From positions 527,717 to 591,716 of the forward strand of contig AP029158.1 of assembly GCA_037076615.1 (NCBI GenBank): a stretch of DNA of 64,000 nucleotides, read 5' to 3'. This document shows, in pieces, positions 18,439 through 22,692 of this stretch (the first letter of the stretch is position 1; every line of letters starts with the position of its first letter). This DNA comes from Candidatus Parcubacteria bacterium. GTDB taxonomy: Bacteria; Patescibacteriota; Patescibacteriia; Patescibacteriales; UBA12465. The notes below the pieces were generated by a model, which was given only the letters and a program-made list of their open reading frames with translations, was not told the origin of the DNA and searched no databases. A program made the translations under genes and the position numbers.

Positions 18439-19371
18439 TTAAGCTTTTAACCATTTTTGTACAATCGCGGCCGCCTCCTCTTCAGTACTCACTTCAATTA
18501 GTTCGCGCCCCTGCTTCGCCCACCGCTTGAACCAAGTTTTTTGTCGCTTCGCAAAACGATAAATTGCCGTACTTAACTTTTCCACCATGGTCTCATAATC
18601 TATTTTTTCCTGGAGATACCAAGAGATGTAGCGATATTCCAAACCAAAAGAATTTAAGCGGGCCGAGGTGACGCCACTGTCTAATAAACGCTCCACCTCA
18701 GCCACTAGACCTTCTTTTTGCAGACGTTCTTTTAAGCGTTTCTCGATGCGGGCCCGCATCATCTCATCGTCCGGATTTAAACTGAGAATCAAAAAATCAT
18801 AAGCTGGTTTCTCTATTTTGGGGGCTGCTGCTTGTTGATTTAGAGTAATTTCCAAATAACGAACGAGTCGACGCGGATTATTCCGATCGCTATTATTTAA
18901 ACGCGCGGCAAAATCAGGCTTTAGAGACTGAAGTTTTTGATAAAGTTCCGTTACTGACATTTTTTCTAAGGACGCTCGAGTCTCAGGATTAGGAGCCGTC
19001 GGCGACAAGACATAACCGTCAACAATCGCCTGGAGATAAAGCCCGGAACCACCAACCAGTAAAGGCAACTTCTCGCGGGCGATAATTTCGTTGATGGCTT
19101 TACTGGCATCAACCTGATAGCGAGCGAGATTGTAATCTTCCATAGGCGCGCAGACATCAATCAGATGACAAGGAATAGTCTGACCAGGAAGAACATATTC
19201 GGCCAAATCTTTACCGGTGCCAATATCCATACCTCGAAAAACCTGACGACTGTCGGCAGAAACAATCTCCCCGTCAAAACGAGCGGCGAGTTTGACCCCC
19301 AAAGAAGTCTTGCCGGAGGCGGTGGGGCCAATAATTACTAAAACTTTAGGATCTTTGTTGCTAATTGACAT
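18439..19371 (-). CDS. miaA: tRNA dimethylallyltransferase
   Basis: 310 aa. P-loop GPTASGKTSL, DSRQVFRGMDIGT, and the family-typical remainder. Confidence 0.95.
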   Translation of the reverse strand: MSISNKDPKVLVIIGPTASGKTSLGVKLAARFDGEIVSADSRQVFRGMDIGTGKDLAEYVLPGQTIPCHLIDVCAPMEDYNLARYQVDASKAINEIIAREKLPLLVGGSGLYLQAIVDGYVLSPTAPNPETRASLEKMSVTELYQKLQSLKPDFAARLNNSDRNNPRRLVRYLEITLNQQAAAPKIEKPAYDFLILSLNPDDEMMRARIEKRLKERLQKEGLVAEVERLLDSGVTSARLNSFGLEYRYISWYLQEKIDYETMVEKLSTAIYRFAKRQKTWFKRWAKQGRELIEVSTEEEAAAIVQKWLKA

Positions 19372-19393
19372 ATCTTTGTAAGAATGCTAATAT
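19365..19393 (+). promoter_or_regulatory. Orphan sigma70-type promoter antisense to flanking genes
   Basis: TTGACA (19365-19370), 17-nt spacer, TAATAT (19388-19393). It points into the miaA-miaB spacer on the opposite strand to both genes. Confidence 0.6.
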
Positions 19394-19399
19394 AACTGC

Positions 19400-19588
19400 C
19401 GCTAGCATGACTTGTTCCTTATTGTTTTGTGGTTATCTGGCGCTTCCTCCAACGCCGAAAAAATAAAACAATTCCACAAGAACAAGCCCAACGCCGCTAG
19501 CGGCGCAAAAGCAGCACCGCCAAAAGTTCTTTTGCCAAATACCTAAGGCGACTGCTTTAGGGGTTCAAGTAATTTGAACCCCTTTTTT
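19400..19588 (+). ncRNA. Candidate structured small RNA (about 190 nt), class unknown
   Basis: Bounded by a consensus promoter and a strong + strand intrinsic terminator. Hairpins seen by eye: CTTGTTC..TTGTGG/CCACAAGAACAAG, CGCCG-CTAG-CGGCG, and GCAG..CGCC/GGCGACTGC. Only peptides of 23 aa or fewer are possible. Confidence 0.45.
19560..19588 (+). terminator. Intrinsic terminator of the candidate sRNA
   Basis: GGGGTTCAA-GTAAT-TTGAACCCC followed by TTTTTT. There is no T-run on the opposite strand, so it is + oriented. Confidence 0.8.
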
Positions 19589-19631
19589 ATTTGTACTAAT
19601 TTTTTAGACACTTAAAAAACAAGGGGGATAA

Positions 19632-20939
19632 TTACTCAACCAGAGCGCCATTAAGACCAAAGGGCAAAGCTTCAGTTATTAAAACGGTAACGAAATTGCC
19701 AATTAAATCAGGGGCCTTGGCACTGGCGGTGAAAAAGACTGTTTTATAATCCGCGCTTTTACCATAGTAACGACCGGCCTTATTTTGACCGTCAACTAAA
19801 ACAGTTACGGCCGTGCCAATTTTTTGCTGACTATTTTTCAAACTGCTCGCAATTAACTGGTCATTAAGAATTTTTTCCCGCCGCTTTTTTTCAATTGAGG
19901 AAACATTATCTTTCATCTTCCAAGAAGCGGTGCCTGGCCGCGGACTATAACGAGAAATATAGACTAGATCAAAATCAACTTCCGTAAATAATTTAACGGT
20001 GTTATTAAACTGCGCTTCCGTCTCCCCCGGGAAACCAACAATCACATCGGTAGTAATCGCCATCTCAGAGCGAGCCGCTCGTAACTGAGCGATTAAGTCT
20101 TTAAAATGGGCCACGGTATAATTACGGTTCATCGCTTTTAAAATTCCATCATCACCCGACTGAACGGCTAAATGTAAATGATTAACCACTTTTTCGGAAG
20201 CAGCGATAACCTCAATTAACTCCGGGCTTAAATCTTTGGGATGACTGGAAGAAAAGCGCACCCAGAAATCACCGGGTAAATCCGCGATCTCTTTTAGGAG
20301 GCGCGGAAAACTATAAACGCCACTGCGGTAGCTGTTTACATTCTGAGCAATTAAATTTATTTCTTTATAGCCAGCGCTTAAAAGTTTTTTTACTTCTGTC
20401 AAAACCTCAGCGGCCGGCCGATAAACTTCACGGCCGCGGGCGTAAGGCACAACACAATAAGAACAAAAGTTATCACAACCATTGCCGATTGGAACATAAG
20501 CACGATAAGTACTCTGGTGGCGAGCCGGAATCTTTAAATACTCTTCCCCACAATCTTGGCGCTCCGTTTCATAATCAGAATCTTCGGGACGCACCCCTTT
20601 AGCGGCCAAGAGCGCCACTAGCTCTGGCAAGCGGTTAATGTTCATAAACAGATCCACCTGCCCCTTAAGGCGACGCTGGACGTCAGGGCGGTAAGCTAAG
20701 CAGCCGGTAATAACCACCAAAGCTTGAGGATTCTTTTTACGCAACTGATTAACCCGGCCATAAACCCGATCTTCGGCCGATTGCCGCACCCCGCAAGTAA
20801 TAAAAACTACCAGCTGAGCGGTTTCTGCTTGAGCACTTTCGCTGTAACCCTGGCCATCTAAATAAGAGGCCAGACGTTCACTGTCGGCCTTATTCATCTG
20901 ACACCCGAGCGTGATTAAATGATAAGTATTGTTAGTCAT
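19632..20939 (-). CDS. miaB: tRNA-2-methylthio-N6-dimethylallyladenosine synthase
   Basis: 435 aa. TLGCQMNKADSE, radical-SAM CDNFCSYC, and a TRAM C-terminus. Confidence 0.93.
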   Translation of the reverse strand: MTNNTYHLITLGCQMNKADSERLASYLDGQGYSESAQAETAQLVVFITCGVRQSAEDRVYGRVNQLRKKNPQALVVITGCLAYRPDVQRRLKGQVDLFMNINRLPELVALLAAKGVRPEDSDYETERQDCGEEYLKIPARHQSTYRAYVPIGNGCDNFCSYCVVPYARGREVYRPAAEVLTEVKKLLSAGYKEINLIAQNVNSYRSGVYSFPRLLKEIADLPGDFWVRFSSSHPKDLSPELIEVIAASEKVVNHLHLAVQSGDDGILKAMNRNYTVAHFKDLIAQLRAARSEMAITTDVIVGFPGETEAQFNNTVKLFTEVDFDLVYISRYSPRPGTASWKMKDNVSSIEKKRREKILNDQLIASSLKNSQQKIGTAVTVLVDGQNKAGRYYGKSADYKTVFFTASAKAPDLIGNFVTVLITEALPFGLNGALVE

Positions 20940-22692
20940 GATTTAAAGATTTTAATTGATACAAGGTAAAGTCGCGACCAATAAATTCTACCGGCTCTAA
21001 CTGCAAACCAAATTCAGGCAGGCGGCTGGCATTTAAATAGTTTAAATCTTTATCCGGATAAGTAAAGTTTAGATAATAGACCGGATAATGAGCCAGTAGT
21101 TTTCTTAAATAAGGATAATAGGGTGGCTCATGCATTAAGCCCATAATCACTGACCTTTGTGGGAACAATACTTTGTCGTGATACTGAGTCAAGATAATGG
21201 CCTCGGGCGGAGTTAATTCTAAAACAGTTTTACCAATCTGGCGATCAGCAGCCATATTATAAGACAAATTCGTTAGACTTTCTTCACCAGAAAAAACGAG
21301 AAAATTAAAAGAGTAAGCCGCCACCGCCAAGTAAGCAATTAGTAAAGTCGTGCCGACCAGCCATTTATAAACCCGATAGCGCCGGCAGAAAAAGAAGAGG
21401 CCGCGCGCTAGCAATTCCCAACTCAGGGCAACTAAGGGCAAGGCCATTAAATAAATCGGCAACCAATACCGGGTATAAGAATTACCAATTGTATGGCTGG
21501 CGGCGTTAGGGTTATCGGTAAACCGCCAAGAGCCGTAATATAAAACTAAGACCACCGATAAAAAAAGCCAGCACAAAAGGTAAACTAAATATTTCTTGGC
21601 CGGCTTTTTTATATTTAACAATAATAAAATTAAACAGCCCAGGGCAGCGAAAACGGTCAGCCAAGGAAACATTTGGACCACATAATAATTAAACATGTCC
21701 AAAGACTGGTGCGGCTTAAAACCAAAATAGAAAACCGTGTCTTTTACTGTTTGCCCGAAATTAGTTAAAGCGGTTTTAAAAGCGGCTCCTGATTGAACGA
21801 CAAAAGTGTTGCCGGCGGCCGACAAAGTTTCGAGCGACCGATTCATTTCATTATAGCCGCCGTAAAAAGGAGAATTATATAGGAGTTGGTTATAATAAAA
21901 AGTGGGCAGAAGTGCCAAAACTAAACCAACTAAAAAGAGTAAAATACGACTAAAGCCGAGCCGGCGCCAATAAAATAAAGCGATAATTCCTAAAACTGGC
22001 AACAGCCATATTATTTCTGAGGTGCGCGTGGCAATCGCTCCACCAAAGAAAAACCCCGATAAAATTATCAAAAACCAACCCTTAATAGTGAATTTATTCG
22101 GTTTACTCTTAAAAAAGTTTTGTTTTAGAGGCTTATAGCGACGACTGAGAGCTAAGGCCAGAAAGTAAGCACCGATAATTAACATTACTAAAAACAAAAC
22201 ATTGTGAAACATACTCCTTAGGGAGTAATAAAAATAAACCGGAAAAACTGCCAGTAGGCCCGCCGAAAGTGCCGCAATTCGTTCCGAAAAAATCCGCCGC
22301 AAGAAGAGGAAGAAAAAAATAATCCCCAGGGCTCCGAAAAATGGTGTTAAATAAGGGATGATAATCGGACTAATTAAGGCCCCTAAATGGCCATAAAGAA
22401 TAATTAAACCTAAGAAGCTGACCGGTTTTAGCCAACCGGCATCACTCCGCATGCTCCGAGGCATGACCAGATCAGAAGCGACCACATTAGCCTCCTCAAA
22501 CTGCGCAATCTCCCCGGTGGTCGCCAAGCGATAAACGAAGAAATAATTAGCCGTTTCGTCAGGAGAGTTCCATTTTACGAGACTTTCATGCTGGGTAGTA
22601 TAATTAAAGTAAGAGGTGCCAATAAAAAAAGCGACCGCCAGAAGAAGGACAGTAACAAAATAAGCGCTCGGAGTTTTCAGTCGCTTGGCCAT
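20932..22692 (-). CDS. GT-C fold glycosyltransferase (ArnT/PMT-like, family 39/83-like)
   Basis: 586 aa with more than 10 predicted TM helices. The first-loop SPDETANYF resembles the DE(x)RY loop motif of ArnT/PMT enzymes. Confidence 0.6.
   Translation of the reverse strand: MAKRLKTPSAYFVTVLLLAVAFFIGTSYFNYTTQHESLVKWNSPDETANYFFVYRLATTGEIAQFEEANVVASDLVMPRSMRSDAGWLKPVSFLGLIILYGHLGALISPIIIPYLTPFFGALGIIFFFLFLRRIFSERIAALSAGLLAVFPVYFYYSLRSMFHNVLFLVMLIIGAYFLALALSRRYKPLKQNFFKSKPNKFTIKGWFLIILSGFFFGGAIATRTSEIIWLLPVLGIIALFYWRRLGFSRILLFLVGLVLALLPTFYYNQLLYNSPFYGGYNEMNRSLETLSAAGNTFVVQSGAAFKTALTNFGQTVKDTVFYFGFKPHQSLDMFNYYVVQMFPWLTVFAALGCLILLLLNIKKPAKKYLVYLLCWLFLSVVLVLYYGSWRFTDNPNAASHTIGNSYTRYWLPIYLMALPLVALSWELLARGLFFFCRRYRVYKWLVGTTLLIAYLAVAAYSFNFLVFSGEESLTNLSYNMAADRQIGKTVLELTPPEAIILTQYHDKVLFPQRSVIMGLMHEPPYYPYLRKLLAHYPVYYLNFTYPDKDLNYLNASRLPEFGLQLEPVEFIGRDFTLYQLKSLNHD

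Follow-up and report, generated by a model that had tools for sequence, protein, structure and literature searches.

The 64,000-nucleotide stretch of contig AP029158.1 from a Candidatus Parcubacteria bacterium that was analyzed here (the window) contains the tRNA-modification genes miaB and miaA, both encoded on the minus strand with miaB upstream of miaA and separated by a spacer of 260 bp. On the opposite strand this spacer carries what the comparison with related genomes identifies as a real, conserved and structured small RNA (sRNA) gene, which is restricted to one clade, new and without match to any described family, and whose predicted transcript has a length of about 190 nt (Table 1). 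A first-pass annotation, made from the letters of the window alone, had proposed a non-coding RNA at this place, running from a plus-strand promoter to a terminator between two minus-strand mia genes 260 bp apart; the coordinates and Pfam domains of the two genes obtained here agree with that description. The true 5′ end of the predicted sRNA probably lies near 19399-19401.

Table 1. Features of the miaB-miaA locus, in the numbering of the window.
Feature	Position	Strand	Remarks
miaA (tRNA dimethylallyltransferase)	18439-19371	minus	Pfam IPPT, E = 4e-60
miaB (methylthiotransferase)	19632-20939	minus	Pfam UPF0004, Radical_SAM and TRAM
-35 hexamer TTGACA	19365-19370	+	overlaps the miaA start codon (minus-strand ATG 19371-19369)
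Extended -10 element TG-C-TAATAT	19385-19393	+	TG 19385-19386, TAATAT 19388-19393; 17 nt from the -35 hexamer
Predicted sRNA, body and terminator, ~190-195 nt	19396-19590	+	full-length covariance-model match, 215.5 bits, E = 4e-58
P1, long-range helix GACUUGUUC (19409-19417)/GAACAAGCC (19480-19488)	19409-19488	+	closes the long hairpin
P2, helix AUUGUUUUGU (19421-19430)/AUAAAACAAU (19463-19472)	19421-19472	+	minimum-free-energy (MFE) fold
Conserved segment GGUUAUCU	19431-19438	+	between P2 and the apical stem
Pa, apical hairpin GGCG/CGCC, loop CUUCCUCCAA	19439-19456	+	CCUCC at 19446-19450
P3, local hairpin CGCCG-CUAG-CGGCG	19492-19505	+	compensatory G-C to A-U; 95.4% of cells pair
P4, helix AAAGCAG-CACC (19508-19518)/GGCG-A-CUGCUUU (19547-19558)	19508-19558	+	encloses a loop of ~28 nt
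UUUUGCC motif	19530-19536	+	in the P4 loop
Intrinsic terminator	19559-19588	+	stem 19559-19583 (GGGGUUCAA-GUAAU-UUGAACCCC), T-run 19583-19588

The predicted transcript would start from an extended -10 promoter. The sequence TTGACAT is the reverse complement of ATGTCAA, hence the position of the -35 hexamer on the start codon of miaA. This TTGACAT, the TG, the 17-nt spacing and positions 1, 2, and 6 of the -10 element are constant in all 13 aligned sequences (13 of the 14 distinct sequences found, on which the model-fitted pair counts and the motif counts given here are based). The -10 variants among the relatives, namely TAATAT, TAAAAT, TAAACT, and TAAATT, differ at positions 3 to 5 only, which is the pattern expected for a working sigma-70 -10 element. 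The plus-strand TTGACA-17 nt-TAATAT that the first-pass annotation had placed at 19365-19393 is thereby confirmed, with the upstream TG as an addition. Promoter-like matches taken alone are not above chance (15 observed vs 9.3 expected), so the case rests on conservation among relatives. The invariance of the -35 hexamer is weak evidence by itself, since the hexamer overlaps the miaA start and TTGACAT is also present at the miaA starts of loci without the RNA; at the level of sequence, the TG-TAnnnT pattern is the stronger part of the promoter evidence. A scan of metagenomes with TTGACAT-N7-TAAGAATGCTAA returned only near-identical copies of the unit (loci L086/L090, and L088, which is the same as L003) together with 8 unrelated loci carrying the promoter sequence. 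We also noticed that the exact pattern occurs in the unrelated metagenome contigs L083, L084, L085/L087, L089, and L092, each time about 20-60 nt before a Shine-Dalgarno (SD) sequence and a start codon, and judging from these occurrences it seems to be a widespread strong type of extended -10 promoter, TAAGAA spacer included.

At the other end of the unit, an 11-pair hairpin followed by TTTTTT is the top-scoring terminator-like site in the 6 kb scanned for promoters and terminators. On the minus strand the hairpin has no T-run after it, in line with the first-pass annotation, which had described a strong terminator of plus orientation only, and the scan gave no minus-strand promoter-like or terminator-like site within the miaB-miaA spacer. 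The terminator stem covaries among the relatives (GGGGUUCAA/UUGAACCCC, GGGGGCUCAA/UUGAGCCCC, GGGGGAGGUUCAA/UUGAAUCCUCCCC, and AAGGGUCUAA/UUAGACCCUU), 100% of its cells are paired, including 16 G.U and 0 A.C cells, and the T-run is kept in all sequences. The hairpin is more stable on the plus strand in 10 of the 13 sequences and about equally stable on the two strands in the remaining three. The distance from the end of the T-run to the miaB stop codon is ~13 nt in most relatives, so that the unit fills the gap almost exactly. The length of MiaB was found to vary, with 435 amino acids (aa) in the window and in L001 and 444-446 aa in the L093, L097, and L003 groups; as a consequence of the shorter miaB, its stop codon lies 41 nt away from the sRNA T-run in the window (19590-19634). 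A second plus-strand promoter-like site, TAGACA-16-GATAAT (19605-19632), is located in this 41-nt stretch.

The predicted 197-nt transcript has a fold of -64.3 kcal/mol with z = -4.84, and 0 of 200 shuffles are equally stable. The overall architecture comprises a long hairpin (P1-P2-Pa), two further hairpins (P3 and P4) and the terminator. RNAalifold, run on a plain (unfitted) MAFFT alignment of ten sequences, predicted P1, Pa, P3, P4, and the terminator, with 45 pairs, 8 of which show compensatory changes, and a covariance model was then built from that alignment. When the 13 distinct sequences are aligned to the model, standard pairs account for 92% of cells, vs 38-51% with the 3′ partners slid by 1-3 columns; both sides change in 27 of the 51 pairs, and covariation as high as that observed did not arise in any of 500 column shuffles. 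The unfitted RNAalifold result and the changes read directly from the sequences agree with these fitted counts. The first-pass annotation had offered to give up its proposal if neither conservation nor covariation were seen in relatives; both are present, in the unfitted as well as in the fitted alignment.

Among the individual helices, P1 shows both-side changes in 8 of 9 pairs, with 96.6% of cells pairing. Compensatory examples are the replacement of CUUGUUC/GAACAAG by CUUGUCU/AGACAAG, GGAUUGUCUC/GGAGACAAUCC and ACUUAGGUU/AACCUAAGU, and in the variant L114 a G.U pair of P1 becomes G-C. Both sides change in 6 of 10 pairs of P2 (80.5% of cells pair) and in 6 of 11 pairs of P4 (93.7% of cells pair), where GCAG/CUGC becomes UAAG/CUUA in the L002 group and the bulged base can be A, C or U. 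The G-C pair at the base of the Pa stem is A-U in the L002 group, with G.U pairs in L003 and L097, while in P3 the pairing CGCCG/CGGCG is replaced by CACCG/UGGUG and by CCGC/GCGG, the whole hairpin being CCGC-GUGCU-GCGG in the L002 group. The MFE fold of the single sequence pairs the 5′ end (GCCGCUAGC) with the palindrome. This pairing was rejected; the local hairpin P3 is preferred because it covaries, whereas the 5′ complement is missing in L003 and in the L097 group. Most of the hairpins drawn by eye in the first-pass annotation reappear here as covarying helices, CUUGUUC/GAACAAG as P1, the palindrome as P3 and GCAG..CGCC/GGCGACUGC as P4, but its UUGUGG/CCACAA pairing is not kept in relatives, and the conserved helix at that place is P2. 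Three unpaired motifs stay constant while the stems change: CCUCC in the apical loop of Pa (13/13 sequences), UUUUGCC in the loop of P4 (with the sole exception of the L093 group, which has UAUUGCC) and the GGUUAUCU segment, which is present in all 13 sequences and overlaps the P1/P2 junction in the L002/L107/L110 group.

MiaA places the source of the window among the Patescibacteria, the closest named relatives being "Candidatus Falkowbacteria" metagenome-assembled genomes. Similarity of the spacer was first detected in L001, L003, and L002, and the family was widened through contigs encoding MiaA homologues 84-68% identical, not through the promoter-pattern scan. A homologous unit is found in the same place, within spacers of 215-240 nt, in every fetched relative whose MiaA is at least 68% identical, which gives 14 distinct sequences in about four sub-lineages, promoter and terminator being intact in all 14. 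The diverged L002/L107/L110 group is recognized by the covariance model over its full length (E ~1e-15 to 1e-16). Two covariance models found no second copy in the 64-kb window and no credible homologue in 50+ other miaA loci of Patescibacteria, nor in the miaA loci of more distant Patescibacteria (MiaA at most 63% identical) or of other phyla, and on this sampling the RNA is limited to one Falkowbacteria-like clade of Patescibacteria. The best distant match, a weak one at E = 0.07, is in the same gap of L053. In this locus (L053:2762-3000, MiaA 55% identical) a 14-nt stretch common with the L002-type RNA, GGTTATCTAGTAAG, was observed between the -35 and -10 elements beside the miaA start, followed by two unrelated tandem antisense units; from its sequence, the stretch may be a rearranged remnant.

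Conservation of the RNA was compared with that of miaA and miaB at their third codon positions. In L001 the RNA is 89% identical to that of the window and third codon positions are 76% identical; the corresponding values are 79% vs 58-65% in L093, 71% vs 51-53% in the L097 group, and 58-60% vs 45-49% in L107/L110. Identity of the RNA being well above that of the third codon positions throughout, the spacer is therefore under purifying selection.

No described family was recovered by database comparison. Rfam 15 at gathering thresholds gave 4 tRNAs only in the whole window; a permissive Rfam scan (E up to 10) of 19300-19700 returned terminator-like noise only, such as BjrC68 and mir-3051, and the same kind of scan (E up to 5) of L093, L097, L110, and L003 gave no family match beyond such noise. 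ARAGORN, used to look for transfer-messenger RNA (tmRNA), found nothing in 19200-19800. The Rfam search recommended in the first-pass annotation thus finds no known family in the spacer region, and the impression recorded there that the RNA fits neither 6S RNA, signal recognition particle (SRP) RNA, tmRNA nor RNase P is shared by Rfam and ARAGORN. As a candidate, 6S RNA (RF00013 and related) was rejected, with no model match and with separate hairpins in place of one rod with a large central bubble. The RNA does resemble 6S RNA (SsrS) in its length of ~190 nt, strong promoter and intrinsic terminator, but differs from it in having no single bubbled rod and a narrow phylogenetic range. Bacterial SRP RNA was rejected as well (no Rfam match; the apical loops are the 6-10 nt CCUCC loop and CUAG/GUGCU, and there is no GNRA-capped helix 8), and so were tmRNA (no match from ARAGORN or Rfam), RNase P RNA (no Rfam match; ~190 nt vs a catalytic core of ~330-400 nt), homology to GadY (RF00122, no match) and membership in the RsaE/RoxS family (no Rfam match; a single invariant CCUCC loop).

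The surroundings of the unit were also compared across Patescibacteria. In nearly all of 53 Patescibacteria miaA loci from a genome scan, miaA is directly preceded by a miaB of the same orientation, the two being usually 13-90 nt apart, which argues for an operon, and from this arrangement miaB and miaA appear to be co-transcribed. A PMT_2-like glycosyltransferase gene upstream (20932-22692) was seen to share 8 nt with miaB (20932-20939), so the operon probably comprises at least three genes. The gene order places miaB before miaA, yet MiaA is the first enzyme of the pathway. Where the miaB-miaA gap exceeds ~100 nt in other Patescibacteria, it always holds something on the antisense strand, often with a promoter whose -35 lies on or near the miaA start (TT[GA]NCAT ... 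TGCTAATAT), followed in many cases by TGnTAnnnT, and in nearly every such gap with a plus-oriented terminator adjoining the miaB stop codon. Some of these gaps contain other hairpin RNAs (L004, L014, L033, L035, L053, L122), others an SD and a small open reading frame (ORF) of 18-70 aa (L017, L031, L027, L036, L022, L119). All these units resemble the one described here in position and orientation but differ in cargo, which is unrelated and in no case matches the covariance models. In a simple interpretation, only antisense units survive in the gap because the terminator of a unit in sense orientation would cut off miaA; if so, position alone is no proof that the RNA regulates miaA.

Several of these other units have features of their own. 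Five of them (L017:2564-3000, L031:2546-3000, L027:2669-3000, L036:2591-3000, and L022:2320-3000) have a promoter at the miaA start and a terminator, with a conserved 5′ hairpin (GGTTCTTTCTA...GGGAACC), a strong SD and an ORF of ~50-70 aa (in L017, MRAQNNLSFSLQTAFPAHDS...) in between; their predicted products may form an undescribed small-protein family. In L119-L121 the gap measures 644 nt and contains two antisense units in tandem (L119:857-1500), the second of which encodes an 18-aa hydrophobic peptide, MKKVLLFSLLICAFAIVF, and L122 (1360-1500) has a single unrelated antisense unit of ~110 nt. In all of L119-L122, the start is from a TTGACAT that lies on the start codon of miaA.

The evidence presented above points to a free-standing plus-strand gene for a structured non-coding RNA of ~190 nt, which would extend from the extended -10 promoter to the intrinsic terminator and act by base pairing via its invariant motifs, and we put the probability of this reading at roughly 60%. 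A number of results weigh against it or reduce its force. A duplex-energy scan of the start regions in the window gave no outstanding trans target. The counts of 27/51 pairs and 92% of cells were made on a model-fitted alignment, and such fitting favors the structure; moreover, the sequences fall into only about four sub-lineages, so that the independent events are modest in number. Conservation of the promoter could in part be attributed to the start codon and 5′ untranslated region of miaA. As to the strand, the body helices contain 18 G.U and 17 A.C cells and thus provide no discrimination, in 12 of the 13 sequences the minus strand gives the more stable fold of the body, and the minus-strand fold has z = -4.55, similar to that of the plus strand.

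These strand results would also fit a reading in which the body structure belongs to the miaB-miaA mRNA and acts there, between the two cistrons, as a minus-strand element, with the plus-strand promoter and terminator being incidental or secondary. Such an element could serve in processing or stability, as the operator for a protein, or as a standby site for ribosomes with GGAGG in its loop, and miaA has no SD of its own upstream. The A.C cells, which are G.U on the minus strand, are about equal in number to the G.U cells, and P4 as well as three G-to-A changes in L086/L090 fit the minus strand at least as well as the plus strand, since there two of the changes lead to G.U and the third restores a Watson-Crick pair. 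However, the lower MFE of the minus strand is probably due to, and would be expected from, its G/U-rich composition. P3 favors the plus strand with three independent G.U variants and no A.C, and no start codon is found at a distance of 4-12 nt behind the GGAGG loop, which is ~75 nt away from the AUG of miaA. An element on the minus strand would also leave unexplained both the covarying terminator, confined to the plus strand with its conserved T-run and its G.U but no A.C cells, and the TG-N-TAnnnT pattern at a fixed 17 nt from TTGACA. We consider it rather unlikely. For the predicted transcript, promoter and terminator alone fix the plus strand; if miaB-miaA is one transcript, both mirror-image RNAs may be present in the cell, with a structure that may be important on both.

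An RNA that binds protein or is of the housekeeping type, for example a diverged 6S-like or SRP-like RNA or a sponge RNA, in place of a base-pairing regulator would be in keeping with the size, the near-consensus promoter and the elaborate multi-helix structure with invariant loops, which is typical of RNAs recognized by proteins. Rfam has no match in the window or in four relatives, though, ARAGORN is negative, and the several separate hairpins form neither a 6S rod nor a GNRA-capped SRP helix 8. The RNA occurs only where MiaA is at least 68% identical, the same gap elsewhere in Patescibacteria being filled with unrelated sequence, and so narrow a distribution is not expected of a housekeeping RNA; on balance this role looks quite unlikely. 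The turnover suggested by the different, non-homologous antisense units in the gap across Patescibacteria lineages, and the 14-nt stretch of L002-type RNA in a different arrangement in L053, could instead be taken to mean that the unit is what is left of a small gene or mobile element once inserted there, now functionless and in decay. This is very unlikely given an identity well above that of synonymous sites, five helices maintained by compensatory changes, and the intact promoter and terminator in every distinct sequence. As regards a coding function, the plus strand of the window contains ORFs of 19 aa (MTCSLLFCGYLALPPTPKK, ATG), 23 aa (GTG) and 44 aa (TTG, 19412-19546), any of which might encode a small protein; the 19-aa peptide is common to the window, L086, and L001, and genuine-looking small ORFs with an SD do exist in the same gap of other Patescibacteria. 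We regard this as highly improbable, as none of the ORFs is preceded by an SD, the L093, L097, L003, and L002 groups lack the ATG of the 19-aa ORF, the reading frame of L003 is shifted by an insertion of 1 nt, ORF lengths and frames vary between lineages, and the substitutions show compensation in helices and no codon periodicity. Among the relatives, neither strand has a conserved ORF, which, along with the conservation and covariation of the structure, upholds the non-coding character assumed in the first-pass annotation; its upper limit of 23 aa for an encoded peptide is right for ATG and GTG starts but is exceeded by the unconserved 44-aa ORF with a TTG start. The source's gene caller annotates a protein of 90 aa over the sRNA region of L099 (557-829, on the minus strand of the locus); no equivalent is present in the other contigs, and the RNA gene has probably been miscalled as coding here.

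Under the preferred reading of a plus-strand structured RNA, the RNA is most likely a base-pairing regulator, although its mechanism can only be inferred. Transcription would begin at the extended -10 sigma-70-type promoter, with its -35 on the miaA start, and end at the intrinsic terminator just outside the miaB stop codon. Base pairing would take place through the invariant single-stranded motifs: CCUCC at the apex of Pa, UUUUGCC in the loop of P4, and GGUUAUCU. As miaB and miaA are apparently co-transcribed, the read-through mRNA would be the exact complement of the RNA, with GGAGG in the matching loop, and the RNA would necessarily be antisense to it. A loop-loop kiss between CCUCC and GGAGG, followed by duplex formation, could then direct processing or shift the expression of miaA relative to miaB, following the logic of GadY on gadX-gadW. 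The fixed loop sequences on covarying stems call for more than this, since an antisense RNA acting only in cis needs no fixed loops; at least one further sequence-specific partner in trans would therefore be expected, which could be purine-rich GGAGG-like sites or a protein.

GadY of Escherichia coli is reportedly a cis-encoded sRNA antisense to the gadX-gadW intergenic region. The present unit is similar in having its own promoter and terminator (here at sequence level, as an extended -10 promoter that is conserved and a terminator that covaries and keeps its T-run), in lying antisense in the gap between two co-oriented genes, with the same arrangement on the plus strand between minus-strand miaB and miaA in all relatives, and, if miaB and miaA are co-transcribed, in its perfect complementarity to their bicistronic mRNA. 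It differs from GadY in that there is no homology in sequence or structure, the length is about twice that of GadY, and five covarying helices and three invariant unpaired motifs are present, which a purely cis-acting antisense RNA would not need; processing of the mRNA is, for the RNA described here, a possible effect.

MiaA and MiaB together build the ms2i6A37 modification on tRNA, and an antisense RNA within their operon could shift the MiaA:MiaB ratio and hence decoding. Bacteria of the Patescibacteria, or Candidate Phyla Radiation (CPR), are uncultured and have genomes of ~1 Mb. To our knowledge, their regulatory RNAs are almost undescribed and few regulators of any kind are known for them, and a literature search for sRNAs or structured RNAs of CPR/Patescibacteria found nothing relevant. 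The sRNA family presented here, with comparative support, a defined structure and two covariance models, can be searched for directly in metatranscriptomes. The unrelated antisense units in the same gap of many lineages also provide a natural series for the origin and turnover of small genes in reduced genomes.

A more far-reaching proposal is that of a clade-specific trans riboregulator, whose CCUCC loop would recognize a few GGAGG-containing mRNAs or mimic the anti-SD of 16S rRNA, and which would at the same time be one of many interchangeable cargos (sRNAs or micro-proteins) of an antisense promoter placed on the miaA start. We put this forward as a tentative idea whose correctness is doubtful. 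If it were true, the miaB-miaA gap would be a recurrent birthplace of small antisense genes across Patescibacteria, in which only the antisense orientation is tolerated, since a sense terminator would cut off miaA. The window is poor in SD sequences, with an SD-like motif before the first start codon in 7 of 78 crude ORFs, and has ~4 intergenic GGAGG sites upstream of genes (38291 on the plus strand; 43488, 63814, and 63823 on the minus strand) among ~59 crude gene calls. From these counts the genome seems to use SD sequences rarely, so that CCUCC is unlikely to be a general anti-SD and could single out a few mRNAs. Among trans-acting sRNAs with C-rich loops, RsaE/RoxS and the hairpins of RNAIII of Firmicutes are comparable in having a pyrimidine-rich, C-containing motif in a hairpin loop, complementary to GGAGG-type purine tracts. 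They differ from the present RNA in that it has one CCUCC loop as opposed to several CCCC/UCCC motifs, is not homologous to them, and belongs to a host in which the rare use of SD sequences makes a general anti-SD role doubtful. Elsewhere in the window, two minus-strand genes (27983 and 34363) are preceded by nearly the same sequence, GACCGCCUCC(U/C)AAAAAUAUG, in which a CCUCC tract, not GGAGG, stands just before the AUG.

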